The translations under genes and the position numbers were made by a program. From the IMG/VR virus record IMGVR_UViG_3300033075_000468: DNA of 64,000 nt, one strand, 5' to 3'. Below, one piece after another: positions 16,809 to 58,235 of the stretch. The DNA comes from a virus. Within the stretch, counting starts at the first letter, position 1. Each line of letters begins with the position of its first letter. The notes under the pieces are model-generated. The model was not told the origin of the DNA, did no database searches, and saw only the letters and a program-made list of their open reading frames with translations.

Positions 16809-17219
16809 TTAAACCGCTTGTACAAGCGTAAGAGATATTCTATATCTGAATCCCTCTTCGGTGCTGCGGCGTTGCAATAATTCTTCTTCGTATGACTCAA
16901 CGAATACAGTATATGTATTATCATGTAAGCCATCTTTCACACGAAGATCCATAGAACCATATGAATCCAACGCCACCGACGAAATTTGGTTTCGTCCCCC
17001 GAACCCATCAATTGTATATGTCGCATCGGCAGACACATTTGTCCATTGAATGGTCCACTTTTTGTACAAGCCTTTTATGTATCTTCTCTTTGAACCATTA
17101 GCAAGTTCCACCTCTACCATGCGCTCATCACGCTGTGTCTGTAGAGGTTCCCTAGACTCATCAGTAAACTCTACCCCGTTTAGAGATATGATATTTGGCA
17201 TTGAGAACGTGATTGGCAT
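16809..17219 (-). CDS. Hypothetical tail protein immediately downstream of the tape measure gene.
   Basis: ORF of 136 aa whose start overlaps the tape measure stop. Confidence 0.4.
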   Translation of the reverse strand: MPITFSMPNIISLNGVEFTDESREPLQTQRDERMVEVELANGSKRRYIKGLYKKWTIQWTNVSADATYTIDGFGGRNQISSVALDSYGSMDLRVKDGLHDNTYTVFVESYEEELLQRRSTEEGFRYRISLTLVQAV

Positions 17220-20200: not shown

Positions 20201-23200
20201 GTCCCGATAACGCTGAACGAAGTCCAAAGCACGCTCTGCTGCTCCACCAGCCTTAGATCTAGTCTTTGAGAATCTACCCTCACCAGGCATATTCCGCCAT
20301 CCATACCCAAGCGTATCTCCCGCCTGTTGAGCAATCTCTTGTCGCATCTTCCACTTAGCAAATCTAGAAATCTCTTTACGAGTATAATTCTTGGCGTCTC
20401 TACCAGTAGAAACATCATCAAGGTGCATCTCTGCCAACAACTTCTGTTGTTCAACAGTAAGAGCACGGAACTTTCTCGCCCCGACAAGCTCTCTCTTAAA
20501 GCTTCTCTTCGCCAGCGCTTCCTTATTCTTGTTTACTCTATCATTTGCAGTATCACGAATAGCAGCGGTCTTAGCATTCTCTAGATTGGCTGCGTCCTCT
20601 GCCTTCTTGGCTAGTTCCTCAGCTTCCTTAGCAATTCTATCGGCAGCTTTTGTTTTAGCCTCATTCCATGCAGCTTTCTCTGCCTCCCATGCAGCAAGTT
20701 TGGCTTCGTTTCTAGCTTTAATTTCTTCTCTTTGCTTTGCTGAACCCTTAACCTTCTCAAGTTGTGGCTTCTTAGGCTCTTCGCCAGTTCCTAATTCTGC
20801 ATTAGCAAGCTCTTCAAGCTTCTTATTTCTACGCTCTTCTGTTACTCTGTTAAACTCTTGTTCTGAATTGAAGATTTCTTCAGTACCATCATCATAAGTT
20901 ACCTTGAAAGCACTTGTGAACATATCAGCAAGTTCTCTCTGTGCCTTGTCTCTATCTAGCTTAGCCTTTGACAATTGGTTCTGAAGCCCCAGCTTACGAC
21001 GCTTATATACTTTAGCAAGTCTCTCGTCATGTGCCTTTACAGCAGCTTCTTCAGCAACTCTTGCCTCTTCTAGCTGGTCCTCGATAACCCAAAGAGCGTC
21101 TTGTTTAGTAACAAAGGCATCTCGCATTCCATCAATCTCTTGTTGAGAATGGCTAGCCAGTGCATCTACAGCACTATATCCTCTATCACTTCTAGCTTCT
21201 CCTGTATCCTTAACAAGATCCGGGTCCATCTGGAATTCTTTTCTAGCATTGTCGTCTTCTGGCCCATTTGCTCTTAGACCATTCAAGGTATTGACACGCC
21301 CATCCATTCCAATGGACTTCATACCTCTGCGTCGTGCAGCCTCAGCAATGTCTCTAGTGATTGTCTCACCAAATACCAATTGAGCCATATCAAGGTTTCT
21401 ATTTAGCTCACCCGCAATAGCATGAGCACGCTTTGCATACTCTGTAACCATGTCTTCTGACAAGTCGGGGAAATATGCACGCACAAGCTTCTTCGCATCA
21501 CGCAAAGAGTTAGAAGTTACACGTGATTCACGAATCTTACCCTTCTTAACGGTTGCTTCAGTACCCTCTGTTGCTGCTGCAACTGTCATGTTGTGCAACA
21601 AGCCTGCCATCTCAGGAGAAAGATTTCCTACAAGCGCTCCCAGGTTTGGAACACGCTCAAACTTAACACGACCTCTTCTACCAAAGAGTTTAGGTGCAGT
21701 CTTATCTGATGGGCCAAAGTATTTATCAAGTATATCACTGTGTCTCTCTCCACCAAAGATATCCTTGCTATACTTCTCTGCTTGCTCTTCCCGGCGAGAC
21801 TTCTTGCCAAACTTGACAGTACGCATATAACCGCTCTTATCCAGAGCAGCGTCAAGTGCCTCTAAATCTGTATCGTATAGCTGACCCTTTGTTAGAGATT
21901 CAATGAATCTTGTTGCTTCTATAATCTTGCGCTCTGAACGCTTATTCATTCCACGCATTCCAGACTGTGCAGCAATAACTTCATCTAGAGTAAGTAACCT
22001 TCTAGTCTCTAGATCCCGCAGTTCATTCTGAATCTTTGCTATGTAGTCCTCAACTAATGCACGACGCTCTGGACGAGTAGCACTCTCACCAGTTCTCTTA
22101 TCAAATCTATCGAGTGTATACATAGCCTTAGAAAGCTTGTCTCTAAGGTTTCCAGTATAGAAATTGTAAAGTTCCTCATCACCGTGAACTTCTTCCCAAT
22201 CATTATCAATCTTTCTGATTGTCTCAATGTTTGCAGCAATAGACTTCTTGTGTCCATCAATAAGCTGTCTGGCTCTACCCAATGACTCTGAGTGCTTAAC
22301 TGAGAAATCTTCTGGATCTAAGTCCACTGTGTCTGAATCAATCTCACCAGATATAGCAAGGTTCTTAAGAGCACGAAGTAGTGCTTCTCTACGGCGTTGA
22401 CCTCTTTCAATCAGATCACCAGTCTTACCCATCTTGGCTTGTTCGGCTTCAAACTTGTCAAATGTCTTATTGAAGTCGTATAGAAGAGAGGTATAGCCCT
22501 TCGCAATTTTTTCATCGCCAGTGTCAAAAGTTTGTCTTCTAAGGAAATCTTGGAATCTACGAACTGCACGCTCAGCATCACCATACTGTCTTGGCTTACG
22601 CAATCTTCCATTGCTAAATCTGTCAGCATAAAGCTCTGCCTTCTTTGCCTGAAGCCGACCCATCTCATCAAATAGATCGCTAAGATCTTGAAGTCTTTTA
22701 CCTGTTGCTGAAAGTCCTTCTTCTTGTGCAGCAAGAATTTCTCTTACGCCAGCAAGTGCCTCGTCAACCTCACCAACAGATTTCTTAATTGCACGGGCCT
22801 TGATAGAGCCCTGGCTTCTTATGAGATTGCTACCAGTCAATGACCGATCTACACCATATGAAGGTGTTGTCTGTGATGCATCTGGATTAAGGGCACTGTC
22901 TGTAGCATGCTTGATAATGCTCTCGAATTCTTGAGTAAACATTCTGTCCACCCCAGCCTTATCCATAATCTCCTTTGAGATTTGAGCTACTACAGCAGTA
23001 GCCTTATGGAAGTCCTCGGTTGGCAGCATGGCACTAAGCGCTTTCATAGCCTCAGCCGGTCTATAACCCGCATAAACAATTCTTGAAACAGCATCGGCTA
23101 CAGCAGGAGGCAGACCACCCTTTGAAGCAATATGTGAGTGCTGATCTGATTGCCCGAAAGCGCTTCTAATGAAGTCGATCATTATCTCTTCATTTTTCTT

Positions 23201-26200
23201 ATCTGACTTCTCAATAGTAAGAGCATTTCTTGCACGAATCATTCCGTTAATTTCAACGATACGATCATAAGCAGGCGAATCTGCATCTGGAACTTGTAGT
23301 TCTTCGATAAGAGAACGAACACGACTAATCATCTTTTGGATTTCTCCATCAGACATACCAGCGTGGATTTCCTTCTTCTTCTTAGTAAGCTTATTGCTTA
23401 GAATACCAAATGTATTTGCTAGCTTTTCATTACCACGCTCTACATATGTTTCTCTTTCACCTAGGCTCTTTGAGAAGAACATATTATTTATCTTGTCGCC
23501 AACTACAGTTGCAACAATAGAATCTACACCTCTAGGCGAAGCTCCAATTTCTCCTGAAGTTACTTGTTCCATACCAAATTTTCTAGGAGTTCTTGGGCGT
23601 GCAGCAAATCCTTTAAAGAATGTATTTCTTCTATCATCTTCAGCGAGAATTTTATCTAGTCCGGTAAAGTCAAAATACTTCTCTCCCGACTTATCATCTT
23701 GCCCCAACTCAAGCAGTTCTTTGAGTGATTCACCAATAAAGTAATCAGGAGCCAAAGACTTAGATCTTGTATTGCCCGTGATATTTCTGATCGTTCTCTT
23801 TAGACCATTGCTAAGACCTACTTGTCTTTGGATCTCAACAAGATCATTGCTGTCTGGCACCATACCACCGGCAATATCTTGAACAATGCGAGCAATCGCA
23901 TCACGCATAACACTCTGTGAGCGAAGGATTCTTTTTCTTTGTACCTTCAAAAGACTTGTGTTTGTAGCTGTGTGTCTCCCACTTGAAACCTCGTTCTCGA
24001 TCATTTCAAGTACATACTTGTTCTTACCCTCAACAGTCTCGACCATCTTGATCAAGCGCTGTTGCAGGGTATTGAATTGAGCAGCCTCAGTAGGAGAGAA
24101 TGATTCAGTAATAGAACGAAGAACCCGCCCCATCTCTTCAGTGAGTCCTTGGTCCTTCTTCATTCTGCCCTTTTGACCTTTGCCAGCTAATTCAGCTTTT
24201 CTAATGTCATAAAGGCTCTTGCTTATTCTCTCTACAGGGTCTAGTCCTTTACCCCGAGCATCAACATCTTGTGCCTCAGCTTTTGCTACCTCTAGCACCT
24301 GTGCAATTTGTCTATCATATTCCCGCTCTGATACGTCAATAAATCCTTGGCCTGAAGAATCATGAATTAGTTCCTTAATATGCTCGAACATTGTAAAAGG
24401 CAATGGACGTGGATCATCTGCCGTAGTCATTGCTTCTCTAGCTCTGACAATATCTGAAGCAGCTTCTTCAATAGTGTCTCTTGCCGGGAAGGCATCTCTT
24501 CTTGCTTTAAGGCCAGCACGCTCAAGGGCATCCTTAAATAGTGCTGACTTATCTTGTGCAGATAGATCTGACTTCTCTGCTGCCTTGATCCACTGATCAA
24601 CTTGAACGGCAGTGATAGTTTCACCACTTGGCTTTTCCACAAGCTTACGAAGGGTTGAATCCCAAGTTGTAACTTTTTCTCTACGAATTGATCCTCTTAG
24701 TCTCTCAATTCTCTTTGATGCGGCTTCTGACCCAGCCGAATTTGTAGAGATATCACGCAATGTATCTCTCAAAGCATCAGAGAATCTATAGAATCTGTTC
24801 TCGAAGTCTGCAAGAGCCTCAGCAGGATCAGCAATAGACATATCAATAGTTACAGGAGCATCATATCCCCATGTCTTCTTGAATGATGCCATTCTATTTC
24901 TAAGACGCTCTAGTCTCTCAATGCGATTATTTACAGCATCAAGATCCGGGTCCACCATATCGCCAAGAGCTAGTCTTCTTGCAAGATTCTTGATATCTGC
25001 CTCTGAACCTAATGCCTTGATTTGATCGTCTGAAGAAGCAATTATTGCCTCAAGATCCTTGACTCTGGCATCTGTTTGGCCAGGCTTTAGGATTGAGGTA
25101 TCAATAGCTTCCTTTACGTCTTTACCTCTACCTAGCCCAATTCTCTTATTTCTTCTGATAATCTTATTTCTTAATGACATTGCAGCATCTTCAGAAGAAA
25201 CTGCGCTAGCTGTTGCTGTACCAGGCATCAAAGTAGCAAGATACGCTCCCGAATCGAAAGCCTCATGCTTTAATGAACCAGCAGCCTTGCGCTTCATAGC
25301 AATGCCCGCAGCCTCAACAGAGTTGAGGTGCGTTTGTGCTGTGGCCTGAGCCTCAATAGCAGTAGCATTAGCAGTAGCAGCAGCAGTGTGCGCCTGTGTT
25401 GCTGTAGCGATACCTTCAGTAGTTATCTTTGTCTTAGAAGCTTCATCAATAAGTGTCTTTAAAGTTACCTTGTAATCATTGATGCTTATTTTTCCCTTAG
25501 AAAATGCATCATTAAGAAGAACAAGTGCGTCCTCGGCTTCAGGCGTCCACTTCCACATCTCACCAAAAGTTTTGGATATACCAAACAGCTTAAGGAATGG
25601 GAAGATCAAACCCTTTGCTGATGTGCCAAGCACGATCATCGCCTGACCAGCAGAATAAATCACTGGACCTAATGCGGATAGACCTACCAGCAATGTAAGC
25701 GCAGCCTTTTTTACGCCCTCAGGAAGCTTCTCAAACGAGTCAATAACTTTCTTTATATTCTCAAGAAGATCAACAACATACGGAATAAGCTTCTTGCCAA
25801 TGTCCTGACCAGTATTAACGATCTTTTGAAGTAGACCTTGAATACGGATTGTCTCATCAGCACCTACAACATCTAGCTGCTTTGACCATTCCTGAGCGAA
25901 TGCACCAATTTCTGTATTAGCAATGTTCATTGCTATTGCAAGATCTTGTCCGCTAGCTGTCGCTTGATCCATTGACTTAGACAGTGCCTCAAGAAGCTGT
26001 CCACCTTCTGTAGCCCCTTCTCCACCAAACAATGCTCTAATAGTTCTGAGAGATGTTGCGTACTTTGTGGGATCTGTTTTTTCTAATAGAGCATATCCCT
26101 TTGCCAATTCAGAAAGCATTTGCACAGCAGTTGCAGGCTTCCCGTCATTATTCATGAGCTTAACCTGTACGCCAGTAAGCTTTCCTATAGAATTGATTTG

Positions 26201-27358
26201 CTCCTGAAGGTCCTTAAGTCTTTGCTTACCACCTGTTGAACCCGTCTCAATGTTTGCAAGAGCAGTAGGCAACTTTACAAGTGCGTTATTCAATGCCCGA
26301 GCAGCATCAGAGGCAGACAGACCACCCTGGGTAATACCAGCCATAAGGGCTGCTGTCTGTGTAATAGAAGCATCGAATCTTTTTGTAGTTGGGAATACAT
26401 CTGCTAGAGCAGCAGCAGTATCCTTAATGTTCATGTTTGTCTTCTGATCAATGATCAAGAATTTTTGTAGCTGATCTTCTACTGTTTCGATAGACATACC
26501 AGCCTGATACATAACCTGCACAAGCTTTTGTGCTTCTGAAGTATCAACCTTACCTAGAATTGCTAGCTCTGAAGCTTGTTGTGTGGCTTTACCTACTTTT
26601 TCAATACTAAAGCCTACACGTGCAAACTCTGATTGCATTTCTTTCAGGCTTACACGTGTCATTCCATATGTCTCAGAAAGTGAGCGAGTCTGATCATCAA
26701 GCTTCTTTAGATCGTCTGAACTAGCTGTAGAAAGTACACGCTTAAGAACAAGATCTACTGCACCAATTTCCATGGCAGCACGAACAGAAGTAACACCAAT
26801 AGCAGCTAGTGGAGCAGTAACACCAACCATAAGCTGGCGACCAGTCCACTGTGCATTCTTACCTAGCTTGATCCACTTATCTGCTGTGTTATCAAGATAT
26901 CTTGTGATTAAGTTGCCCTTGATCAAGAATCGAGTATGCGCCATGTCCATGTCATTCATTGATCTGACATATCCATTGTGTCTAGTCGATGTTGTCTCGA
27001 ACTCTTTACCTAACCGATATAGACCTTCCTTAAGTCCATTCAATGACTTAAGATATCTATTATCTATAACCTTTGAGCCCTCGTTCCAGGCATTAGCCAA
27101 GAGGGACCCGTGCTCTCTAGCAAGCTGGGCCTGAGTGATGTTTTTATTAAGGGCTTTGGTAACTGTACCAATGGCAGCAGCTTGTTTATTAGCGCTGCTA
27201 GCTACCGCTCCCCCACCTAGTGCTTTATTCATAGAAGCACTGGCTTGTTCCATAGCCTTAGCTATGCCCTTCGCCATTTGCTCTACTACTTGCCCACCCT
27301 TGATTGCTGATGTAGCATCAACATTTACAACGATGGGCATTACAATTGCTTGACTCAA
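17219..27358 (-). CDS. Tail tape measure protein (3379 aa) with a C-terminal M15-type peptidase motif.
   Basis: It lies immediately downstream of the chaperone pair. It has long Ala/Glu/Lys-rich coiled-coil tracts, a hydrophobic Gly-rich membrane-like segment, and a C-terminal SSMHEFGLAMD, which fits the M15 signature S-x-H-x-x-G-x-A-x-D. Confidence 0.8.
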   Translation of the reverse strand: MSQAIVMPIVVNVDATSAIKGGQVVEQMAKGIAKAMEQASASMNKALGGGAVASSANKQAAAIGTVTKALNKNITQAQLAREHGSLLANAWNEGSKVIDNRYLKSLNGLKEGLYRLGKEFETTSTRHNGYVRSMNDMDMAHTRFLIKGNLITRYLDNTADKWIKLGKNAQWTGRQLMVGVTAPLAAIGVTSVRAAMEIGAVDLVLKRVLSTASSDDLKKLDDQTRSLSETYGMTRVSLKEMQSEFARVGFSIEKVGKATQQASELAILGKVDTSEAQKLVQVMYQAGMSIETVEDQLQKFLIIDQKTNMNIKDTAAALADVFPTTKRFDASITQTAALMAGITQGGLSASDAARALNNALVKLPTALANIETGSTGGKQRLKDLQEQINSIGKLTGVQVKLMNNDGKPATAVQMLSELAKGYALLEKTDPTKYATSLRTIRALFGGEGATEGGQLLEALSKSMDQATASGQDLAIAMNIANTEIGAFAQEWSKQLDVVGADETIRIQGLLQKIVNTGQDIGKKLIPYVVDLLENIKKVIDSFEKLPEGVKKAALTLLVGLSALGPVIYSAGQAMIVLGTSAKGLIFPFLKLFGISKTFGEMWKWTPEAEDALVLLNDAFSKGKISINDYKVTLKTLIDEASKTKITTEGIATATQAHTAAATANATAIEAQATAQTHLNSVEAAGIAMKRKAAGSLKHEAFDSGAYLATLMPGTATASAVSSEDAAMSLRNKIIRRNKRIGLGRGKDVKEAIDTSILKPGQTDARVKDLEAIIASSDDQIKALGSEADIKNLARRLALGDMVDPDLDAVNNRIERLERLRNRMASFKKTWGYDAPVTIDMSIADPAEALADFENRFYRFSDALRDTLRDISTNSAGSEAASKRIERLRGSIRREKVTTWDSTLRKLVEKPSGETITAVQVDQWIKAAEKSDLSAQDKSALFKDALERAGLKARRDAFPARDTIEEAASDIVRAREAMTTADDPRPLPFTMFEHIKELIHDSSGQGFIDVSEREYDRQIAQVLEVAKAEAQDVDARGKGLDPVERISKSLYDIRKAELAGKGQKGRMKKDQGLTEEMGRVLRSITESFSPTEAAQFNTLQQRLIKMVETVEGKNKYVLEMIENEVSSGRHTATNTSLLKVQRKRILRSQSVMRDAIARIVQDIAGGMVPDSNDLVEIQRQVGLSNGLKRTIRNITGNTRSKSLAPDYFIGESLKELLELGQDDKSGEKYFDFTGLDKILAEDDRRNTFFKGFAARPRTPRKFGMEQVTSGEIGASPRGVDSIVATVVGDKINNMFFSKSLGERETYVERGNEKLANTFGILSNKLTKKKKEIHAGMSDGEIQKMISRVRSLIEELQVPDADSPAYDRIVEINGMIRARNALTIEKSDKKNEEIMIDFIRSAFGQSDQHSHIASKGGLPPAVADAVSRIVYAGYRPAEAMKALSAMLPTEDFHKATAVVAQISKEIMDKAGVDRMFTQEFESIIKHATDSALNPDASQTTPSYGVDRSLTGSNLIRSQGSIKARAIKKSVGEVDEALAGVREILAAQEEGLSATGKRLQDLSDLFDEMGRLQAKKAELYADRFSNGRLRKPRQYGDAERAVRRFQDFLRRQTFDTGDEKIAKGYTSLLYDFNKTFDKFEAEQAKMGKTGDLIERGQRRREALLRALKNLAISGEIDSDTVDLDPEDFSVKHSESLGRARQLIDGHKKSIAANIETIRKIDNDWEEVHGDEELYNFYTGNLRDKLSKAMYTLDRFDKRTGESATRPERRALVEDYIAKIQNELRDLETRRLLTLDEVIAAQSGMRGMNKRSERKIIEATRFIESLTKGQLYDTDLEALDAALDKSGYMRTVKFGKKSRREEQAEKYSKDIFGGERHSDILDKYFGPSDKTAPKLFGRRGRVKFERVPNLGALVGNLSPEMAGLLHNMTVAAATEGTEATVKKGKIRESRVTSNSLRDAKKLVRAYFPDLSEDMVTEYAKRAHAIAGELNRNLDMAQLVFGETITRDIAEAARRRGMKSIGMDGRVNTLNGLRANGPEDDNARKEFQMDPDLVKDTGEARSDRGYSAVDALASHSQQEIDGMRDAFVTKQDALWVIEDQLEEARVAEEAAVKAHDERLAKVYKRRKLGLQNQLSKAKLDRDKAQRELADMFTSAFKVTYDDGTEEIFNSEQEFNRVTEERRNKKLEELANAELGTGEEPKKPQLEKVKGSAKQREEIKARNEAKLAAWEAEKAAWNEAKTKAADRIAKEAEELAKKAEDAANLENAKTAAIRDTANDRVNKNKEALAKRSFKRELVGARKFRALTVEQQKLLAEMHLDDVSTGRDAKNYTRKEISRFAKWKMRQEIAQQAGDTLGYGWRNMPGEGRFSKTRSKAGGAAERALDFVQRYRDRDTTETLAQFAGDQFPITRKKRFSRAKFFGGLVKDAAESEKGKSVGGKAFGFLNILTNPAASIGKFTGFMKSFAQEGGKGVAIMEGMFGPQMAGQISTGLAAAGPWILVIAAIAAVVLILWKNWKKWIDTARPGIEALKESLSKLWHGIIDPFIGVFKRLGGEGNKQGSMWKNIGTIIGAAARAFSKIIDVIRPFVSLLADTLASALYIFIQAIRLIIALLTGDWSDAWDAAKEIFSEVWDHMKMVAGLAVLAVIKGVFALVRGTIEGMGMIGNAARKFVAFLNPVGGAGPLENVDKWKQSALDAVGAAQSALEDKVWDTDSANRKAAEAGKKQGEAYKDGLDKINQEKLDLYSNLPTPDEQKAAAEEATKEFISAFKSKLEKIMEGWKDAALSAFDDWAQTQKDAIDEKVKAIDKEIDAERKRDEDLEYLRRKEEIREKRRELNVKYRADRALAIYEGRFDDAKQMDYDHGQSLKDLRKEDADVDKDRVKTLVDRERDAQKERLQIEKDALEKSIAAQRKALEAQLDAFTEFTPRSEQAAKDLQAKILGALSAATGGYATIGAENASAWSSSWKTAMDEAKKQVEDDNYWKNMGQEAMAAFAKELGVELDPKAFEDTPGNAPLTGDEAAAAAGGDNWAKAQGGGYQGRKGYTVNSFPDNPNRYHSGGTVAGMPGEVDATLLSGEYVMQRSAVSKYGQKMLDAMNNGKMKFHSGGMVSDVLAGGIKNVFGQFVKGFMGGNIGLGLTGSDGTTTNINASRMKQAILEAASPANMIIDHIYPAFMKAFNDFNAALGNKFDVVSGFRSYQQQADLYAKYLAGKGNLAAPPGSSMHEFGLAMDTAPNSTPADRELARKFGLVFPIPSEPWHVEPINAKQVRESLQAGSENLQNTYSELGFKIRNGLVVQNVPSLDVGGMIRKSGIAEVHKGERVLTASQTAAYNAGGKTEIHVHIDGNFFGSDREIEKLVGRIDREITPKIQRVKGTQSRTFSKVTH

Positions 27359-35762: not shown

Positions 35763-35946
35763 AAATCATTTTCGTTCTGTGAAACAGGGTCTTTTCCCTA
35801 CATACCTCGCATGGAAGATGGATATCTTCCAACATACAGTTTTTAAGCTCTAACTCAAATTCTTCGCATTCTTGGCATTCATACACTGCGAGGAAATGTA
35901 GAGGATAGTTAGACATTATTTCTCCGGGCACCCATTCGGACCACAA
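35746..35946 (-). CDS. Small Zn-ribbon protein.
   Basis: ORF of 66 aa with CQECEE...CEVCREK. Confidence 0.3.
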   Translation of the reverse strand: MWSEWVPGEIMSNYPLHFLAVYECQECEEFELELKNCMLEDIHLPCEVCREKTLFHRTKMIYGLSI

Positions 35947-38900
35947 GCTAGCTCTCCTGAGCCAGTAGTTGCGACGTACTCATAAAGTTCATACTCCGCT
36001 CTCGAAATACGCTCATATGGAGACTGTGGTCTTGACCCGTCAATCATAATGGTTGTTCCCTTTAGGTTTGGTAGATAATGAATAATTGTTTGCTTTGCCC
36101 GCTCGACAGTTTCAAAGGATGGAGGACCAACCTTTAGTGCCCATGCTGGCACATCGTTCTCTATTTGCTTAGCAAGAAATTCACGTTGTCTTTGATCAGG
36201 CTCAATGTTTACAGTAAAGCTAATTGCATTGTCTGCATAGCACTCTTGAACCATTGCTTGAATAGCTAAGAAATCTGTGAGGGAAACATCTTGTGCCCCC
36301 TCAACTAGATCAGCATCAAAGCCCAAAGCTTCAACTTCAGCTACTAGCGGGTCCTTAACATAGAATGTTACTACCTTTGTATTAACCGTATAGATATCAT
36401 CTTCAATCTCATAACCTTGAGCAGCTAGCTCAATGAGTTTAGGTGAATCTGCGGAATACCGTACTCTTCGCTTAAAATAAGGTGAGTAAGTTGTTTGTAT
36501 AGATTCGGTTGCTCCTGGCAATTTTGCAATTGTTCCAGTAGGAGCAAGAGTAGTTCCCTTAATTGGAATTGGGATTCTAAGTTGGTGAGCATAACGAATC
36601 TTTTCCTTATCTACTACGGCCTTCCAATCCCGCAAAGTCTTACGAACATTACGGTCACGGTGTGAGTCGCTATAGCGTAGACCTTGCTTCACCAGCCATG
36701 CCTGATAACCAAAAAATCCAACACCGATACGACGATTACGATCCACTACCTCACGCTGCAACGGATTTGGAACATCTCCAAATGTTGCTCTCATGAGGAA
36801 TCTCGTCATTAATCTGAAGGCTTCTTTTGAACCCTCGAAATCGTTATAGAATGCAGAGACATTGACATGACCCAAGTTGCAATTTTCCCATGGCTCCAAT
36901 GCGATTTCCCCGCAATTATGAACATATAAACCATTTGCATCAAATGCATTTATACCAGGAACTTGAGCATCATATACTTCTTGTTCCCCAATATATTCTA
37001 ATGAATTGAAGGTCGCTGTCCACGGCTTCGAATAAAAGCCACGCTTCATCAATTTAACAGAATCATAGAACTTATTGGACTTATTATCATTTACGAAGCC
37101 GATAATATCCATAAATCTTTCTGAGTCAGATGTGATTATGAGTCTCCAATTATCCTTCGTCCAGTAATCAGCTAATCCTCCATGACCATCGGGCATGGCT
37201 TTAAATCCAGCGGGGCGGGCATGATTTATCTTTGATCTTATACCAAAATTGAGAAGCATCTTCTGTACCGTCTGTAATCTCTCAAAATTAGATTGTGACA
37301 ATCTTATTGAAATACCTCCGTCAGTAGACGATCCCTCCACATGTCCGTCAGTATCAAATAGACCTCGTAGTAATCCTTTCTGGAAATCTGAACTTGTCTT
37401 AGTTATCAAATGATCAAAATCTTTTGTCCCAACTGGCAAATACTCAGATATAATATCAGCCTTAAGCTCATATCTTTCAGTGCCCTTATACCAGCCACCA
37501 CTATTTACACATATAGAAAGATATTGACGCACACCTATCTCAGCAATATCCTCGCCCCAAGAGCAAAGTAAAGGTCTGCTATTGCTCCAAGTACCATCGC
37601 CAACGAAATGCCCTATGGCATATCCGTCTAGCTCTGATCCCTGTCCACCCCAATCTGCTTCAACTTCATGGTTATGGAGCATAATCTTATCTCCATGGCG
37701 CAAGGACCCTGCTTCTATCCAACCTTCTTCCGTCATGACCTTGTGATCGTATGTAAGATTAAGCTCATATCCTTCTAACGTTGATAGTGTGTATACAGGC
37801 TTAACACCAGTTGAAAAGAATCCATCAGTCTTGTATGGCTTACCATCAACCATCATATAACATGGACGGTTTAAATATTCGTCCACCCGCCTTGGACCAT
37901 TTTGGGTAAGGACTAATGTATCTCCTGTTACGCAAGGGTTGGTCGAACCAACATCTCCCAATTCTCCGACAGAGGCCAACGATATATTATAGAATCCAGG
38001 CTCGCCATTCTCGAACATTCCTTCTATTACTTTTTGATATACTTCTTGTGCATGTTCATGATATCCATGCCGCTTGCTCTTTAGAGCTACAAAAAAATCA
38101 TCATCAATCTCTACCGAGATATTTGTAGACCAATGCTCACCAGAGTCCTTCTTGCAATCAATGAACTCAAAGATATCATGGTCAATCCAAGACTTGATTG
38201 ACATACGTGCGCTTCTACGCACATTTCCTGCCACTACACACTCAGCGATACGATGATCAATAAGCATGTTCTCTAGAGAAGTAAGCTTTCTTCCCACCGT
38301 ATTATTCAATACTTCACAAATCTTATGAAGCATTATAGCTAATGCTATTGGTCCTGACGCAGTTCCACCGAACCCACGAATAGGAGAATTCTTTTCTCTA
38401 ACATTAGATACGTCTAGAACAAGAGTGTTGTATCCCTGTGCTCCATCTACTGTTGAGCCAACCAATAGTTGACGTAGGGCTTCTACCCAGCCCTCTCTTG
38501 AATCATCAATACGCTCCGCTCCATCCCAAAGATGGGAGAAATCCTTTGAGATTACTCCTGCATCTACCATGTCCTGATAATCAGGATGGGCTGGATTGCA
38601 TGTCACATGGACACTGATTGGATTCAGAATAGGTGGTTGTTCCGTTAAATAACGATTGGAGTAGTTTGCTCCTACTCCACCACCCTTCATTAATTCATCA
38701 AATGCAAACGTAAAATGTGTTGACAGCGTATTATCAAACGCTGCCCTGTGACAGTTAAACAAGAACTGTCTCCCCGGCACACCTGAAACCCATAGGTGTC
38801 TTCCTGCCGGAATCATCTTGAAGTTATAGATCAAATCAAATAACTTCTGCTTCTCATCAGGCTCAATATACTTTGATGCTACTAGCCCGGTATTTCCTTC

Positions 38901-39017
38901 TACTACTCTGCGAACTGTGTCTTCCCAAGTCTCGTTCTCGCCGTTCGCTTTGACTCGCATGTACGTGCGCTCATAGACCTCCTGGCCTATGGGACCCCAC
39001 TTAATGCCTTCAGGCAT
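35916..39017 (-). CDS. nrdJ: Ribonucleotide reductase class II (adenosylcobalamin-dependent NrdJ) interrupted by an intein.
   Basis: The extein junction reads GSTNP|C...HN|CGEIALEPWENCNLGHVNVS, which reconstitutes the class II active-site NPCGEI motif. The intervening segment begins with Cys, ends with His-Asn, and is followed by Cys. Confidence 0.9.
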   Translation of the reverse strand: MPEGIKWGPIGQEVYERTYMRVKANGENETWEDTVRRVVEGNTGLVASKYIEPDEKQKLFDLIYNFKMIPAGRHLWVSGVPGRQFLFNCHRAAFDNTLSTHFTFAFDELMKGGGVGANYSNRYLTEQPPILNPISVHVTCNPAHPDYQDMVDAGVISKDFSHLWDGAERIDDSREGWVEALRQLLVGSTVDGAQGYNTLVLDVSNVREKNSPIRGFGGTASGPIALAIMLHKICEVLNNTVGRKLTSLENMLIDHRIAECVVAGNVRRSARMSIKSWIDHDIFEFIDCKKDSGEHWSTNISVEIDDDFFVALKSKRHGYHEHAQEVYQKVIEGMFENGEPGFYNISLASVGELGDVGSTNPCVTGDTLVLTQNGPRRVDEYLNRPCYMMVDGKPYKTDGFFSTGVKPVYTLSTLEGYELNLTYDHKVMTEEGWIEAGSLRHGDKIMLHNHEVEADWGGQGSELDGYAIGHFVGDGTWSNSRPLLCSWGEDIAEIGVRQYLSICVNSGGWYKGTERYELKADIISEYLPVGTKDFDHLITKTSSDFQKGLLRGLFDTDGHVEGSSTDGGISIRLSQSNFERLQTVQKMLLNFGIRSKINHARPAGFKAMPDGHGGLADYWTKDNWRLIITSDSERFMDIIGFVNDNKSNKFYDSVKLMKRGFYSKPWTATFNSLEYIGEQEVYDAQVPGINAFDANGLYVHNCGEIALEPWENCNLGHVNVSAFYNDFEGSKEAFRLMTRFLMRATFGDVPNPLQREVVDRNRRIGVGFFGYQAWLVKQGLRYSDSHRDRNVRKTLRDWKAVVDKEKIRYAHQLRIPIPIKGTTLAPTGTIAKLPGATESIQTTYSPYFKRRVRYSADSPKLIELAAQGYEIEDDIYTVNTKVVTFYVKDPLVAEVEALGFDADLVEGAQDVSLTDFLAIQAMVQECYADNAISFTVNIEPDQRQREFLAKQIENDVPAWALKVGPPSFETVERAKQTIIHYLPNLKGTTIMIDGSRPQSPYERISRAEYELYEYVATTGSGELACGPNGCPEK
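36924..37934 (-). other. Intein with a LAGLIDADG homing-endonuclease domain inside nrdJ.
   Basis: It has an N-terminal CVTGDT, C-terminal LYVHN with Cys at +1, and internal YAIGHFVGDG and LLRGLFDTDGHV LAGLIDADG blocks. Coordinates come from the junction codons read in the DNA and carry roughly +/-9 nt uncertainty: the DNA junctions give a 337-aa intein, whereas counting residues in the ORF-track protein gave 340. Confidence 0.8.
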
Positions 39018-45208: not shown

Positions 45209-46012
45209 ATGAGAGGGGAACATTTCAAAAGATTTGAAATCCCCAAAAGTCAATCATCAGAAGTAGCACTCCAAAACGAAATCCTGAGAGTATTGGTTGG
45301 TAGTTCTCTTACAGGAATTATCGGAGCTAATTCCTCTCAGGATTTCGACTACTGTGCAGTCTTTATTGAACCGATTGACTATGTTGTGGGACTACATCGA
45401 ATGGATCATTACACTTGGCGTTCGAAGCCCGAAGGCGTAAGATCTGAACCCGGTGATATTGACTTTTCTTCGTATTCACTACGTAAGTTCATGTCATTGG
45501 CTATGACTGGAAATCCTTCTATAGTGCAGATGCTATTTGCTCCCTCGACACATAGAGTTGCAAATAGAAGCGGAATGAAGCTATTAGAGTTGGCACCAGC
45601 AATTGCATCTAAGCAAGCTGGGCCGAGATTCCTAGGATATCTAGAGTCTCAAGAAAAGCGTCTAGTTGGTGAGTTAAAAGGACACATGCCTAAGCGTCCT
45701 GAGCTAGTAGACAAATATGGCTATGATACCAAGTACGCTGCTCATGCGCTAAGACTTGGCTTTCAGGGTATCGAATATATGGAAACCGGACAAATTCGGT
45801 TGCCCATGCTACCTGATCCCGGCGATTATCTGAGGGCAGTGCGAGCGGGCGAGTATTCGCTGGCAGATGTAGTGGCAGATATTGCAGTGATCAAGCAGAA
45901 TTTGAAACATGCAATTGATACCTCACCATTGCCACCCGAACCACATAAGCAAGCTATTGAAGAATGGCTAATAGATATACACTTAGATTGGTGGAATAAC
46001 AATGAGCTATAG
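45209..46012 (+). CDS. Nucleotidyltransferase of the Pol-beta superfamily.
   Basis: GSSLTGIIGANSSQDFDY fits the G[SG]-x9-13-D-x-D NTase motif. It is translationally coupled to the downstream RNA ligase. Confidence 0.6.
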   Translation: MRGEHFKRFEIPKSQSSEVALQNEILRVLVGSSLTGIIGANSSQDFDYCAVFIEPIDYVVGLHRMDHYTWRSKPEGVRSEPGDIDFSSYSLRKFMSLAMTGNPSIVQMLFAPSTHRVANRSGMKLLELAPAIASKQAGPRFLGYLESQEKRLVGELKGHMPKRPELVDKYGYDTKYAAHALRLGFQGIEYMETGQIRLPMLPDPGDYLRAVRAGEYSLADVVADIAVIKQNLKHAIDTSPLPPEPHKQAIEEWLIDIHLDWWNNNEL

Positions 46013-47264
46013 TGCTCTAGTTTGCAGAGTGCATACTAGACCTCATCCGAATGCAGACAGACTACAGCTTGGTACCGCAAATGGTTATCAAGTCATTGTC
46101 GGCCTTGATGTTCAAGATGGTGAGCTAGGTGTGTTCTTTGGTCCTGATGGACAGCTATCGGAAGAGATGTGTGCAGCAAATGACCTCATCGGATATACAG
46201 ATCCAGACACCCACGAACGACGTGGAGGATACTTTCCCAAAAACCGTCGTGTACGGTCCCAAAAGCTACGTGGCATTCCTTCCGATGGATTTTGGACAGG
46301 GCTGTCATCCTTTGTATTCACAGGAGTACGTGCGGAGGATTTCGTGGAAGGACAAACCTTCACCGAACTCAACGGAATCCCCATCTGCAACAAGTACATC
46401 ACCGAAGCAACTAGAAGAGCACAAGCTTCTGGACAAGGTAAGCAGCGCAGAGAAAACGCCGGATTCCCTAAGCACATAGATACCAAGCAGCTTAAGCACT
46501 ATATTGATTCTATCCCCGAAGATTCAATCATCTATATCACAGAGAAGTTGCATGGCACATCTGGAAGATATGGTTTGGTTTATGAGGAAACTGAAGTTCC
46601 TCTCAAGTGGTGGGAAAAGCTCGCTAGACGTAAGTCTAAGGCAGTCGGTGAATATAAGTACATGAATGGCACTCGTAATGTCGTCATGGCTGATCACACC
46701 CATTCTGGCTTCTATGGTAATGAGGAATTCCGTTTCAATGCAGTGAAAGATATTCAACTGCACAAGGGTGAAGTGCTATACTTTGAGCTAGTGGGCTATA
46801 CGACAACGGGTACCCCCATCATGAGCCCGCAAAACACTTCAAATCTGAAGAAGGAGCTTAAAGGATATGCCAACCCGATGGTTTACTCCTACGGAACAGA
46901 AAGTCCGAATTGCGATCTATATGTCTATCGTATTACTCGGGCTGATCCTGACGGTAATATAACTGAACTAAGCTGGCCGCAAGTCAAGCGTAGATGTGGT
47001 GAGCTAGGTATCAAGCATGTGCCAGATATTGCTAGAGCTTTATACACTGGTAAAAAAGATAAACTCCAAGATAAGGTGTCTGAATTTACAGAAGATCTTT
47101 CTTCAACCCTGGATTCTAGACACATTCGTGAGGGTGTGGTTATCAGAGTTGAAGCACCTGATGGCACCACCGACTGGTACAAAAACAAGTCATTTACCTT
47201 TGGTGTGCTTGAGGGTTATCTGAAGGATTCAGATGACTATGTGGATGCTGAAGAAATTGCATAG
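46002..47264 (+). CDS. ATP-dependent RNA ligase, Rnl2-like.
   Basis: Motif I is ITEKLHGTS (compare T4 Rnl2 EKIHGTN). It also has EGVVIRV (motif IV) and KNKSF (motif V). Confidence 0.7.
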   Translation: MSYSALVCRVHTRPHPNADRLQLGTANGYQVIVGLDVQDGELGVFFGPDGQLSEEMCAANDLIGYTDPDTHERRGGYFPKNRRVRSQKLRGIPSDGFWTGLSSFVFTGVRAEDFVEGQTFTELNGIPICNKYITEATRRAQASGQGKQRRENAGFPKHIDTKQLKHYIDSIPEDSIIYITEKLHGTSGRYGLVYEETEVPLKWWEKLARRKSKAVGEYKYMNGTRNVVMADHTHSGFYGNEEFRFNAVKDIQLHKGEVLYFELVGYTTTGTPIMSPQNTSNLKKELKGYANPMVYSYGTESPNCDLYVYRITRADPDGNITELSWPQVKRRCGELGIKHVPDIARALYTGKKDKLQDKVSEFTEDLSSTLDSRHIREGVVIRVEAPDGTTDWYKNKSFTFGVLEGYLKDSDDYVDAEEIA

Positions 47265-55959: not shown

Positions 55960-56382
55960 ATGAGAGATACAGAGCTTTTTAGAGACGTTGCACAATATAT
56001 TCGAGATTATCCTAATGAATATGCTCAGGAATATTGGGCATACGTTGATGAAGATTCATGCTGCACTTACCGCTGTATTCTTGGTACTGGAATTCATTTA
56101 AAGGGTCTTTCTAGAGAATGCTTCGAAAGAAGTGGAGACGGAGAAGTTACCTTCAAGACAGGATTCCTTCCTTTTGTTGATGGTGCTGCAATATTTGGTA
56201 TCTCGAAAGAAGAAGCGAACTTCTTGTTCCACGGGGCTTGGCGTCCCGCTCATGGTCTAGAGGTTGCAGAGGCTCTTGAAAAGCTTGCTGCTGGTGCCCA
56301 TATCAAAGATGTTACTGATATGAGAGGCGAATACTTCGGGGCTGCTGAGGATCTTCGCCCCGAAGAGTCTACGCACTTCTAA
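55960..56382 (+). CDS. Hypothetical protein.
   Basis: ORF of 140 aa with AAAGGAG 6 nt upstream of the ATG. Confidence 0.45.
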   Translation: MRDTELFRDVAQYIRDYPNEYAQEYWAYVDEDSCCTYRCILGTGIHLKGLSRECFERSGDGEVTFKTGFLPFVDGAAIFGISKEEANFLFHGAWRPAHGLEVAEALEKLAAGAHIKDVTDMRGEYFGAAEDLRPEESTHF

Positions 56383-56389
56383 AGGTGTT

Positions 56390-56462
56390 GTCTGCGTAGC
56401 CCAACGGCAGAGGCAACGGACTTAAAATCCGCAAAGTGTGGGTTCGAATCCCACCGTAGACA
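56390..56462 (+). tRNA. Class I tRNA with anticodon TAA (decodes Leu UUA/UUG) and a short variable arm.
   Basis: Hand fold: gtctgcg-ta-gccc-aacggcag-aggc-a-acgga-cttaaaa-tccgc-aaagt-gtggg-ttcgaat-cccac-cgtagac-a. Its anticodon stem is identical to that of tRNA-Arg(TCT) at 53417. Confidence 0.6.
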
Positions 56463-56466
56463 CAGT

Positions 56467-56775
56467 ATGGAATCAAAGTGCGTGCAATACGGATTACCTA
56501 CTGATTACTTCTTCCCGATACCTTTTTCGGGGCGACCAAAAAAGGGAGCAGAAAACAACACTCATGTAGTGCAGTCAGAAATTGCAAAGTTCTGCAACGG
56601 CACAAATGATGGAATAGTTTGTCAGTACAAACAACAATGTTTTGAAATGGGGTTGCACAACAATGAACCAGGCGTTTGGGGAGGAACAACCGAAGCGGAG
56701 AGGGACGTATTTAGATCGAAAATCCGCAAAGGTAATACCATTTCCTACCAACTACCAACCGAAGAAACGGGTTGA
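56467..56775 (+). CDS. WhiB-like (Wbl) protein, divergent.
   Basis: It has PTDYFFP, a Cys cluster C..C-x5-C, and the G[VI]WGG signature (PGVWGGTTEAER). Confidence 0.5.
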   Translation: MESKCVQYGLPTDYFFPIPFSGRPKKGAENNTHVVQSEIAKFCNGTNDGIVCQYKQQCFEMGLHNNEPGVWGGTTEAERDVFRSKIRKGNTISYQLPTEETG

Positions 56776-56858
56776 TTGGGTTGGTGGCTTTCTGATTGCA
56801 TTTGGTGTTATCGAAGTTACTGTGATATATCTTCTTATTAAAAGGTTTAGTTAGTCTC

Positions 56859-56929
56859 GGTCCATTAGTTTATTGGTAAAATCTCGGATTTTCACTCCGA
56901 AGAAGAGAGTTCGATTCTCTCATGGACTA
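56859..56929 (+). tRNA. tRNA-Glu(TTC).
   Basis: Hand fold: ggtccat-ta-gttt-attggta-aaat-c-tcgga-ttttcac-tccga-agaa-gagag-ttcgatt-ctctc-atggact-a. Confidence 0.85.
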
Positions 56930-56953
56930 CTCCTTAGAACAAAGGAAAACAAC

Positions 56954-57097
56954 ATGCAGGTTTCTGATGCCAGAATGAGAGAGATGGGCAAGGATCTTTA
57001 TGCGGTGTCGAGAGATACCACGGTTCCTGAACATCTTCGTCAAAGAGCAGCGGGTCATAGCCAGTTCATCTATGATAAGCTGCATGAGAATAAGTAA
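56954..57097 (+). CDS. Hypothetical small protein.
   Basis: ORF MQVSDARMREMGKDLYAVS..., 47 aa, with AAGGAAA 7 nt upstream of the ATG. The track ORF started inside tRNA-Glu. Confidence 0.3.
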   Translation: MQVSDARMREMGKDLYAVSRDTTVPEHLRQRAAGHSQFIYDKLHENK

Positions 57098-57104
57098 GTA
57101 ATCA

Positions 57105-57165
57105 GGAGAGTTGGCAGAGCGGACTATTGCACTGGTCTTGCTATGTAATAGACGCCAGTATAGTC
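57105..57165 (+). pseudogene. 5-prime fragment of a tRNA-Ser-like gene (acceptor 5-prime strand, D-arm, start of anticodon arm) that continues into a long hairpin.
   Basis: The sequence ggagagttggcagagcggactattgca matches 19 of the first 20 nt of the intact tRNA-Ser at 57532 (ggagagatggcagagcggccaaatgcg). No T-arm or 3-prime acceptor follows, and the nuclease gene starts at 57173. Confidence 0.4.
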
Positions 57166-57172
57166 TACTGGT

Positions 57173-57526
57173 ATGGACTCCCGTACAAAGCTGGGGAGCC
57201 TAGCAGAACTAAAGGTAGCTGCTGAACTATTATCACAAGACTACGAAGTATTCGTTGGTTGGGGTGGGAAAACCACATGTGATTTAGTCGCCATCAAAGA
57301 CTCAGAAATATTGAGAGTTCAGGTCAAAGGAACTGGAACACAAAGTAAGTCTGGAAAATGGATAACGCAACTCAAGTCAGTTAGGTCAAACAGAACAAAG
57401 AACGTTATATATCCTTTCGATTCAACATTGTGTGAAATCGTAGGAATCTATATAGCACCAGAAGATAGAGTAGTTATATTAAGCTCGGAAGAGCTACATG
57501 GTAAAAGTGAAATAAGAATAACATAA
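57173..57526 (+). CDS. PD-(D/E)xK nuclease, Hjc or restriction-endonuclease-like.
   Basis: [30 protein letters not shown] fits the Hjc-type E..D-x-[VI]..K nuclease core. The gene is sandwiched between the tRNA-Ser 5-prime fragment and the intact tRNA-Ser. Confidence 0.55.
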
Positions 57527-57531
57527 TACTT

Positions 57532-57616
57532 GGAGAGATGGCAGAGCGGCCAAATGCGAGCGCCTTGAAAGCGCTAGACTCGAAAGGGTCCGGGGGTTCA
57601 AATCCCTCTCTCTCCG
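57532..57616 (+). tRNA. tRNA-Ser(TGA), class II.
   Basis: Hand fold: ggagaga-tg-gca-gagcggccaaa-tgc-g-agcgc-cttgaaa-gcgct-agactcgaaagggtcc-ggggg-ttcaaat-ccctc-tctctcc-g, 85 nt. Confidence 0.85.
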
Positions 57617-57677
57617 CTGCACATAATAACCGGCCATGACTAGAAAGATGGGCTACCTAAAGGGGTATGTCTGCTAG

Positions 57678-58235
57678 TTGGGGCACGACGAAAGGAATAC
57701 TGTGCTTACACAAGAAATCATTGAACATATGAAGGAATTCTGCCTTAATGAAGATAAGATGCTTTGGCAGATGGGCGACTATCTTAATGAGCACAAGCTG
57801 ACAGACGAGGAAATTGAAAAGCTTGCTGATATCGTTCAGCGCAAAGCTTCTACACTTCGTCAGCGTGAAATGGTGGCAAGAGAATTCCAGCCAGAAGTTC
57901 GTAACTATAATCATGCATGGTCAGTTTATAAAGAACTAATGAGAGTTAAGGGGAAGGATTCCCGCCAAGAACTTCTAGATGGTAGAAATGAATGGACTGT
58001 TGACTCTATGAAGTCGGCAGTAAATGATTTCATTTCATCACAACCTAGTGATGGTTCGGGGCGTAATAGAATAGGTACACCGTTAGGTGGTGCAAGTGCA
58101 GGCATGAGAATTGGCAATATTCTCATTCGTGGCACTGAGCAGAATGGTGAATTAACAATCACCATTGATAAACCATTATCTGATATTCAAACCCTTTCAG
58201 GAAAGCAGTCCACCACTATCATCTGTCATGTCTGA
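57678..58235 (+). CDS. Hypothetical protein. The ORF-track start is a TTG; a GTG at 57702 with AAAGGA upstream is more likely.
   Basis: ORF of about 177-185 aa. Confidence 0.4.
   Translation: MGHDERNTVLTQEIIEHMKEFCLNEDKMLWQMGDYLNEHKLTDEEIEKLADIVQRKASTLRQREMVAREFQPEVRNYNHAWSVYKELMRVKGKDSRQELLDGRNEWTVDSMKSAVNDFISSQPSDGSGRNRIGTPLGGASAGMRIGNILIRGTEQNGELTITIDKPLSDIQTLSGKQSTTIICHV

Follow-up and report, generated by a model that had tools for sequence, protein, structure and literature searches.

A short-arm tRNA-Leu(UAA) in the tRNA array of an IMG/VR phage and its relatives in phages and Actinomycetota

A 2023 review of tRNA identity describes tRNA-Leu as long-armed everywhere but in animal mitochondria (PMC9976931). 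A different situation has been found in Streptomyces coelicolor, which has a native type I tRNA-Leu(CAA) with the variable loop ACAGC (Fan, Huang, Ji and Wang 2019, NAR 47:6369; PMC6614811). The single leucyl-tRNA synthetase (LeuRS) of this species leucylates it with about half the efficiency of the class II bldA tRNA; charging needs the U8:A14 tertiary pair, the shared identity element, together with a variable loop that has 5 nt or more and includes nt 48, and competence for the type I tRNA is set by the leucine-specific domain of LeuRS (PMC6614811). The same enzyme does not charge human mitochondrial tRNA-Leu(UUR), and phages are not mentioned in the study (PMC6614811). In E. coli, leucine identity resides in A73, A14, A15-U48, G18G19 and A20a, with the anticodon and the long arm dispensable (PMC9976931). 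A full-text literature search found no paper on short-arm tRNA-Leu in phages, which is not proof of absence. Here we describe such a tRNA, a tRNA-Leu(UAA) at positions 56390..56462 (+), in a 64,000-nt stretch of viral DNA (IMG/VR record IMGVR_UViG_3300033075_000468); the whole stretch is referred to as the window and this gene as the focal tRNA. It is very probably a functional type I tRNA-Leu of an actinophage tRNA array, leucylated by the host LeuRS and decoding UUA and UUG.

ARAGORN calls a tRNA-Leu(taa) of 74 nt at 56390..56463 (+) with the anticodon at position 34. Rfam RF00005 scores 61.3 bits against 56390..56462 (gathering score 29), with the full model 1–71 covered. The acceptor stem is GTCTGCG/CGTAGAC, including G5.U68, and is followed by U8 and A9. 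The D arm has a 3-bp stem (10–12/23–25), a C13.A22 non-pair, A14, A15, G18G19, C20 and A20a. This D arm is a signature of the type I Leu family and resembles the D arm of class II tRNA-Leu; in the window, ARAGORN draws a 3-bp D stem for the focal tRNA and for the CAA, class II Leu and Ser tRNAs, and 4 bp in the other class I tRNAs. Position 26, between the D arm and the anticodon stem, is A, and the T arm is GTGGG-TTCGAAT-CCCAC. CCA is not encoded, and the C at 56463 could act as C74. The minimum free energy fold is cloverleaf-like, with a value of -23.9 kcal/mol (z = -2.0). A scan for promoters and terminators around the gene gave counts equal to the shuffle expectation.

The focal tRNA is a canonical elongator tRNA in its acceptor stem (7 bp), anticodon and T stems (5 bp each), anticodon loop (7 nt, with U33) and T loop (of the form TTCRANY), and it has U8:A14, G18G19 and the T-loop residues U54, U55, C56 and A58. 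The gene also has the characters of a type I tRNA-Leu: a leucine anticodon, a 5-nt variable loop that includes nt 48, and a body that groups with short-arm Leu tRNAs. The long variable arm (>10 nt) of bacterial class II tRNA-Leu is absent. The E. coli leucine identity set (A73, A14, A15:U48, A20a, the 3-bp D stem and the unpaired 13:22) is complete. The preliminary description of this DNA had proposed a class I body with a leucine anticodon that departs from the textbook rule, and this is confirmed. It had also allowed that prediction programs might read another anticodon or score the gene as a pseudogene; the anticodon called is the same and the Rfam score is high.

The focal tRNA is like the S. 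coelicolor tRNA-Leu(CAA) in its 5-nt variable loop, U8:A14, G18G19 and A73, in its actinobacterial context and in coexisting with a class II tRNA-Leu. It differs in having UAA in place of CAA, the UAA tRNA of S. coelicolor (bldA) being class II. It also differs at nt 48, which is C in the loop ACAGC of S. coelicolor and U in the focal tRNA, where it forms the A15:U48 pair; the short Leu tRNAs of phages in general have A15:U48. The S. coelicolor tRNA is native and its leucylation was shown by experiment, whereas the focal tRNA is phage-borne and its leucylation is predicted. Canonical class II tRNA-Leu, as in E. coli tRNA-Leu(UAA) and phage T4, shares with type I tRNA-Leu the residues A73 and A14, the A15:U48 pair, the 3-bp D stem, a non-Watson-Crick 13:22, the D loop AAYNGGYAG and the anticodon set. 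The two types differ in the variable region (12–17 nt in class II, 5 nt in type I), in position 9 (G versus A), in pair 12-23 (G-C versus C-G) and in position 13 (G or A versus C). Animal mitochondrial tRNA-Leu(UUR) is also of class I length, has UAA and is recognized through A73 and A14 (PMC9976931), but no specific sequence relationship to it was seen and the mitochondrial elbows are degenerate. The short-arm kind of tRNA-Leu is already documented in Streptomyces, and the focal tRNA is an ordinary member of a known, under-appreciated family.

Membership in this family was examined with the anticodon left free. The D arm alone, GCCCAAN{1,2}GGCAGAGGC, was searched in IMG/VR and in one genome per prokaryotic species. 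Among the IMG/VR matches listed, 99 of the 100 tRNAs called by ARAGORN have a leucine anticodon (UAA 54, UAG 24, CAA 17, GAG 2, AAG 1, CAG 1), one is Gly, and all are 73–79 nt in length. The prokaryotic genomes gave 91 tRNAs of 74–78 nt, every one of them Leu (UAA 54, UAG 14, CAA 13, CAG 7, GAG 3). Among the combined matches listed, leucine anticodons from both Leu codon boxes are therefore found in 190 of 191 independent tRNAs (100 viral and 91 genomic). That one body type is tied to both NAA and NAG anticodons argues for a shared leucine identity and is not predicted by a recent shift from Arg or Lys. Positions outside the search motif are also uniform. In 228 short Leu tRNAs, U48 is present in 99%, A73 in 99%, a 5-nt variable loop in 92% and U8-A9 in 91%; among 594 class I tRNAs of other kinds the figure for A73 is 55%. 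Long-arm Leu tRNAs, of which the same data contain 32, agree with the short ones in A14-A15, A15:U48 (94%), A73 (100%), the non-Watson-Crick 13:22 and the D-loop pattern. Stem positions in 221 distinct sequences of the type I family are paired in 98.3% of cases, compared with 60.8% when partners are shuffled, with 4–6 pair types per position, and the cloverleaf of the family appears to be under selection.

Comparisons of the whole body give the same assignment. When the focal tRNA was compared, anticodon masked, with about 940 parsed tRNAs, its 40 nearest neighbours were without exception short Leu tRNAs, and 33 of these have UAA. Isotype profile hidden Markov models (HMMs), trained with the window left out and anticodons masked, give it 62.2 bits as Leu-I, 40.4 as Arg-tct and 33.2 as Lys, a result used solely for its large Leu-I margin. 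A distant blastn search of GenBank phages with the focal tRNA alone matched 142 records, nearly all annotated as tRNA-Leu, from phages of Prochlorococcus, Streptomyces, Rhodococcus, Pseudomonas, Lactobacillus, Bacillus, Myxococcus and Acinetobacter. Twelve matches were retrieved, with genes of 73–77 nt and the anticodons UAA, CAA, UAG or GAG; an Erwinia phage match among the retrieved records is a genuine Arg(UCU) tRNA. Such GenBank phage genes, including those of Rhodococcus phage Trina (taa), cyanophages P-SSM7 and P-RSM6, Streptomyces phage Wakanda, Pseudomonas phage ZC03 and Citrobacter phage Michonne, have the same architecture and D arm and a core that is 79–92% identical, and are often beside Arg(UCU) and Ile(UAU). 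Their flanks are dissimilar and their hosts are in many phyla; they are labelled tRNA-Leu, with the missing arm undiscussed.

A syntenic ortholog gives evidence on the gene itself. Contig L258 of the Joint Genome Institute (JGI) assemblies has 0 differences from the window in 1225 bp (56465-57689) and 16 differences that all lie within 116 bp (56349-56464). The contig is a mosaic, the left part of which derives from a sister lineage with about 87% identity to the window. Its tRNA retains UAA, the loops and the D and T arms, and differs at 9 positions. Four stem changes are compensatory: 2:71 from U-A to C-G, 27:43 from A.C to G.U, 28:42 from C-G to G-C and 29:41 from G-C to A-U. The remaining change is A44 to C. 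Restriction of the stem changes to compensatory ones indicates purifying selection on the focal gene itself. The preliminary description had considered that homologs might carry a conventional anticodon and that this copy alone had diverged, but the homologs, including the syntenic ortholog, have the same UAA. The anticodon stem of the ortholog is GGAGA/TCTCT, and the Arg-like stem of the focal tRNA is confined to the window lineage. A scan of JGI contigs with the acceptor stem and D arm of the lineage added four phage-like contigs that encode a short Leu(UAA) or Leu(UAG) tRNA; in none of them is the stem shared with an Arg(UCU) neighbour. The mosaic breakpoint in L258 is exactly at the 3' end of the tRNA, and tRNA genes may be recombination junctions between related phage lineages.

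Other searches for relatives had limited yield. Megablast of the tRNA region against GenBank phages found nothing, and distant blastn of that region matched only the tRNAs themselves. Close relatives were not found in IMG/VR with an exact 19-mer of the focal anticodon arm or with the upstream 140-aa open reading frame (ORF). Exact look-up of the window RNA ligase protein returned no record; look-up of other window proteins recovered the same phage in Logan, ENA and JGI assemblies, one record being an activated-sludge metagenome. The portal protein has 46–49% identity with its counterparts in Streptomyces Stanwilliamsviridae-type phages and 40% with that of a Rhodococcus phage, and two glycosyltransferases point to the same affinity. 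WhiB-family regulators are a hallmark of actinobacteria and their phages. A WhiB gene beside the tRNA, together with the portal identity, makes an actinobacterial host plausible, which agrees with the high-GC host presumed in the preliminary description. The phage is a distant relative of Streptomyces and Rhodococcus phages and occurs in activated sludge.

The proposed role follows the composition of the phage genes. The window has a GC content of 43%, and third codon positions have a GC fraction of 0.34 (61 ORFs, 18,143 codons). Of the Leu codons in these ORFs, UUA represents 15.1% (11.1 per 1000 codons), UUG 14.8% (10.9 per 1000) and CUA 24.8%. Among Arg codons AGA makes up 51%, and AUA accounts for 27% of Ile codons. 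GC-rich actinobacteria are limited in their decoding of UUA, which in Streptomyces is under developmental control by bldA. Only 145 UUA codons are counted in the entire genome of S. coelicolor (PMC6614811). A comparison of UUA and UUG usage between phage and high-GC host had been suggested earlier; its phage side is given by the figures above and its host side is presumed. Transcription of the array would yield the focal tRNA, and host enzymes would mature it and add CCA. Host LeuRS would then attach leucine, as the sequence features of the tRNA and the published biochemistry suggest. The synthetase is expected to ignore the anticodon, to need no long arm and to read the elbow and core together with the 3' end (A73/C74). 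The core elements that it would read, U8:A14, A15:U48, G18G19 with the T loop, the D-loop layout and a variable loop of at least 5 nt, are all in the focal tRNA. The charged tRNA would decode UUA and probably UUG, the latter by wobble from a modified U34. It would thus supply a codon that is frequent in AT3-rich phage genes and presumably poorly decoded by the GC-rich host. Leu(UAA), Leu(CAA), Leu(UAG), Arg(UCU) and Ile(UAU) together appear to form a set aimed at A-ending or rare codons, probably the decoders in shortest supply in a GC-rich host. The CAA tRNA noted in the preliminary description is present and likewise of class I length, and it covers both UUR codons together with the focal tRNA, as stated there.

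The anticodon arm was the source of a different interpretation, namely that the gene is an anticodon-shifted tRNA, with UAA acquired by an Arg-type or Lys-type body that delivers Arg or Lys to UUA codons. The stem is indeed common to the focal tRNA and tRNA-Arg(TCT) at 53417: over a 22-nt stretch from A26 to A44 the two are the same save for nt 35 and 36. Identical anticodon stems occur in 26 of 6093 pairs (0.43%) of tRNAs with different anticodons from one locus, and the A27.C43 mismatch in 7 of 941 parsed tRNAs, two of which are the focal tRNA and the window Arg(UCU). The rarity of both the identity and the mismatch makes the match more than a trivial coincidence. The highest non-Leu HMM score is for Arg-tct, and A73 fits both Arg and Lys. 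A changed amino acid is nevertheless hardly credible. Bacterial arginyl-tRNA synthetase relies on A20, C35 and U or G36, and lysyl-tRNA synthetase on U34-U35-U36 plus A73 (PMC9976931 Table 1). The focal tRNA has C20, A35 and A36 and lacks the Arg set; from the Lys set only U34 and A73 match. Its D arm, variable loop and discriminator are all of the Leu-family type, beyond the anticodon arm it is not nearer to the Arg tRNA than to other isotypes, and the ortholog has UAA on another anticodon stem. Family membership, the missing determinants and the ortholog lead to rejection of the Arg/Lys shift; there is no sign of genetic-code tinkering at this locus, which has a normal leucine tRNA. Gene conversion or recombination between tRNA genes of the array could account for the arm alone. 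In its favour, the matched arms include the rare mismatch, the identity is missing from the sister-lineage ortholog, the phages are visibly mosaic near tRNA genes, and in the unrelated IMG/VR contig L122 (7021-7178) Leu(UAA) and Arg(UCU) are adjacent and their arms match exactly, in a sequence that differs from the window's. We regard such a conversion as unlikely, although not strikingly so: a single tract would have carried the anticodon too, arms are shared in just 2 of 21 Arg/Leu pairs, and the ortholog diverges about as much as its flank (9/74 versus 7/25 nt), for which ordinary divergence is sufficient. The stem sequence is also constrained and common, which raises the chance expectation; the commonest Leu(UAA) stem is GCGGA/UCCGC, and both Leu and Arg tRNA types favour A31-U39, C32 and A37A38. 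The arm identity appears to be lineage-specific, due either to chance on this constrained background or to local gene conversion, and is no evidence on amino-acid identity. A stem core CGGA/UCCG was considered as a mark of U34 tRNAs and discarded, as it is found in 5.6% of all tRNAs and in 3 of 22 in the window, which is not significant.

Several points weigh against a functional leucine tRNA. The anticodon stem contains the A27.C43 mismatch. Charging depends on the host enzyme, in that neither E. coli LeuRS nor S. purpurogeneiscleroticus LeuRS can charge the S. coelicolor type I tRNA (PMC6614811). Expression, charging and decoding of the focal tRNA are inferred. The HMM classifier is weak: it puts the correct isotype first for only 11 of 21 window tRNAs, and ordinary class I isotypes give noisy results. 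As the focal D arm was itself the query for the family, some circularity enters the D-arm statistics and the margin of the Leu-I HMM, but none enters the results on the anticodon, U48, A73 and loop length. Another reading is that the gene no longer functions, being a relic or pseudogene such as a decaying class II tRNA-Leu without its former arm, or that it is a tRNA-like recombination site. The mismatch, one G.U in the stems, the lack of an encoded CCA, the L258 breakpoint at the tRNA 3' end and the truncated 5' halves of similar tRNAs in some Streptomyces contigs would fit a relic. This is very improbable in view of the high Rfam score, the intact universal and Leu-specific positions, the same-strand place in an array of 17 Rfam-supported tRNAs, ortholog changes that are all compensatory or loop-neutral, and strong covariation over hundreds of family members; CCA is likewise not encoded in 73 of 94 chromosomal members of the family. 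A functional tRNA-Leu might instead serve mainly in counter-defence, replacing host tRNA-Leu that is depleted or cleaved, an idea that overlaps with the preferred reading and adds that the short arm may make the tRNA a poor substrate for a host or phage tRNA nuclease. A pair of RNA repair genes, RlaP and RNA ligase (45209-47264), lies directly upstream of the array, and Leu tRNAs of type I and type II occur together in the phage. Phage tRNAs that evade anticodon nucleases have been documented for other isotypes. As the main purpose of the gene this seems rather improbable, since the CUUAAAA loop does not differ from that of chromosomal actinobacterial type I Leu(UAA) and has no escape signature, codon usage by itself explains the tRNA set, and no tRNA-Leu(UAA)-specific nuclease is known for the host. 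The repair pair leaves room for an additional counter-defence role beside UUA/UUG decoding. Somewhat less probable still, and speculative, is that a constitutive phage-borne UUA decoder also overrides the TTA-codon regulation of the host during infection, that the short arm evades host factors acting on class II tRNA-Leu, and that the arm shared with Arg(UCU) reflects, in place of chance, a common partner that recognizes the anticodon arm.

ARAGORN finds 22 tRNA genes in the window in total. The focal tRNA is on the same strand as the other members of its array (17 Rfam-supported tRNAs, 19 ARAGORN calls), and the coordinates of the main features are given in Table 1. The sister tRNA-Leu(CAA) scores 57.3 bits with the Leu-I HMM, with the runner-up at 31.9. 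An A31.C39 mismatch closes its anticodon stem (UCAGA/CCUGA); the commonest stem of Leu(CAA) members of the family, ACGGA/CCCGU, also has A31.C39, which may be a conserved trait of CAA members. With short-arm Leu(UAA) and Leu(CAA) and a long-arm Leu(UAG), both Leu tRNA types coexist in this phage. A tRNA-Ile(UAU), a direct reader of AUA, is at 55819-55892 (+). In cyanophages P-SSM7 and P-RSM6 (contigs L001 and L007) and in the metagenomic phage contig L263, tRNA-Ile(UAU) again has Arg(UCU) and Leu(UAA) as neighbours, and the trio looks like a recurrent package of decoders for A-ending rare codons. Three ARAGORN calls are below the Rfam tRNA gathering score, Ile-gat (79 nt) at 1349-1427 (-), Met-cat at 51557-51630 (+) and Asn-gtt at 51698-51771 (+), and may be false positives or degenerate tRNAs.

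Table 1. Positions of the focal tRNA, its parts, neighbouring genes and related loci. Positions are those of the window unless a contig is named.
Feature	Position	Strand	Basis and remarks
Type I (short variable loop) tRNA-Leu(UAA)	56390..56462	+	ARAGORN, Rfam RF00005, structure drawing, parse; nt 1-73
D arm GCCC-AACGGCAG-AGGC	56399..56414	+	ARAGORN drawing, parse
Anticodon arm ACGGA-CTTAAAA-TCCGC	56416..56432	+	anticodon TAA at 56423-56425; A27.C43 mismatch
Variable loop AAAGT, 5 nt	56433..56437	+	class I length; U48 in A15:U48 Levitt pair
Discriminator A73	56462..56462	+	parse
Sister type I tRNA-Leu(CAA)	54931..55004 (ARAGORN 54931..55005)	+	ARAGORN, Rfam; D arm GCCC-AATTGGCAG-AGGC, variable loop CTAGT, A73
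Class II tRNA-Leu(UAG), 13-nt variable arm	55372..55453 (ARAGORN 55372..55454)	+	ARAGORN, Rfam
tRNA-Arg(UCU)	53417..53489	+	ARAGORN, Rfam; A20, C35, U36 as expected for Arg
WhiB-family regulator gene	56467..56775	+	Pfam PF02467, 28 bits vs cutoff 23.6; directly downstream of focal tRNA
RlaP-family nucleotidyltransferase (PF10127)	45209-46012	+	Pfam; directly upstream of tRNA array
RNA ligase (PF09414)	46002-47264	+	Pfam; 11-nt overlap with RlaP gene
Chromosomal type I tRNA-Leu, examples	L160:1581-1654, L212:4324-4398, L153:7501-7577, L230:5461-5536
5' halves of type-I-Leu-like tRNAs	L139:3093-3109(-), L149:6445-6461(-), L194:3620-3636(-), L145:4482-4498, L189:4582-4597

Genes other than tRNAs provide some context. 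The RlaP and RNA ligase pair resembles an RNA or tRNA repair module and suggests that the phage meets tRNA-cleaving defences. An ORF of 137 aa between tRNA genes (55415-55828, +) has Cys pairs and an HH motif and is HNH homing endonuclease-like by eye, with no Pfam match. In the related lineage of contig L255 (1097-1429), an extra HNH gene that is not in the window is located between a glycosyltransferase and the next gene. A class II (B12-dependent type) ribonucleotide reductase gene at 35916-39017 (-) is split by an intein with a LAGLIDADG homing endonuclease domain (Pfam). Among the structural genes there is an ORF of 3379 aa at 17219-27358 (-).

Short-arm tRNA-Leu is present in at least 120 IMG/VR contigs, and the GenBank phage records that match the focal tRNA have hosts from Cyanobacteria to Enterobacteria. 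Phages of non-actinobacterial hosts with such a tRNA include P-SSM7, P-RSM6, Pseudomonas phage ZC03, Bacillus phage P59, Lactobacillus phage Semele, Acinetobacter phages, Myxococcus phage Mx1 and Felix-O1-like enterobacterial phages. Citrobacter phage Michonne (contig L253) has three short Leu tRNAs, UAG, CAA and UAA, at 1499-1575, 2076-2153 and 2496-2574. A lone chromosomal type I tRNA-Leu, mostly UAA, is found in Nocardia, Mycobacterium, Rhodococcus, Gordonia, Arthrobacter, Nocardioides, Corynebacterium, Acidimicrobiales and a 1.46-Mb acI genome. The type I Leu(UAA) genes of Nocardia carnea (L230), Aeromicrobium (L238), Mycobacterium (L153), Rhodococcus (L173) and acI strain IMCC26103 (L160) are 86–91% identical to the focal tRNA over nt 8–65 with the anticodon masked. 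They share with it the D arm, the CUUAAAA loop, a variable loop of the form NNAGU, A73 and the lack of an encoded CCA. They differ in standing alone among housekeeping genes and in a conserved acceptor stem GCCCCCG, whereas the focal tRNA has GUCUGCG and is in a phage array. That the chromosomal copies are prophage cargo was considered and rejected for the loci examined, as the lone short Leu(UAA) genes of Nocardia, Mycobacterium, Herbiconiux and the 1.46-Mb acI actinobacterium are flanked by housekeeping genes. These native genes contradict the rule that tRNA-Leu has a long arm outside animal mitochondria, and they imply that many actinobacterial LeuRS enzymes would have to accept the short-arm architecture. 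Three contigs of Streptomyces, and two more, contain no more than the 5' half of a type-I-Leu-like tRNA (acceptor stem and D arm) and, beyond it, unrelated sequence, which is conserved among the three from Streptomyces. The halves could represent a disrupted tRNA, an integration-site remnant or something else.

For the window, the result mainly corrects an over-interpretation. The short-arm tRNA-Leu is no curiosity of Streptomyces; it is carried by phages of diverse hosts and is encoded by native genes across Actinomycetota. The reported failure of E. coli LeuRS on the Streptomyces type I tRNA raises the question of how or whether the short-arm Leu tRNAs of enterobacterial phages are charged, and whether LeuRS compatibility sets limits on phage host range. 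The breadth of the family and its compatibility with LeuRS outside Actinomycetota are the most useful leads.

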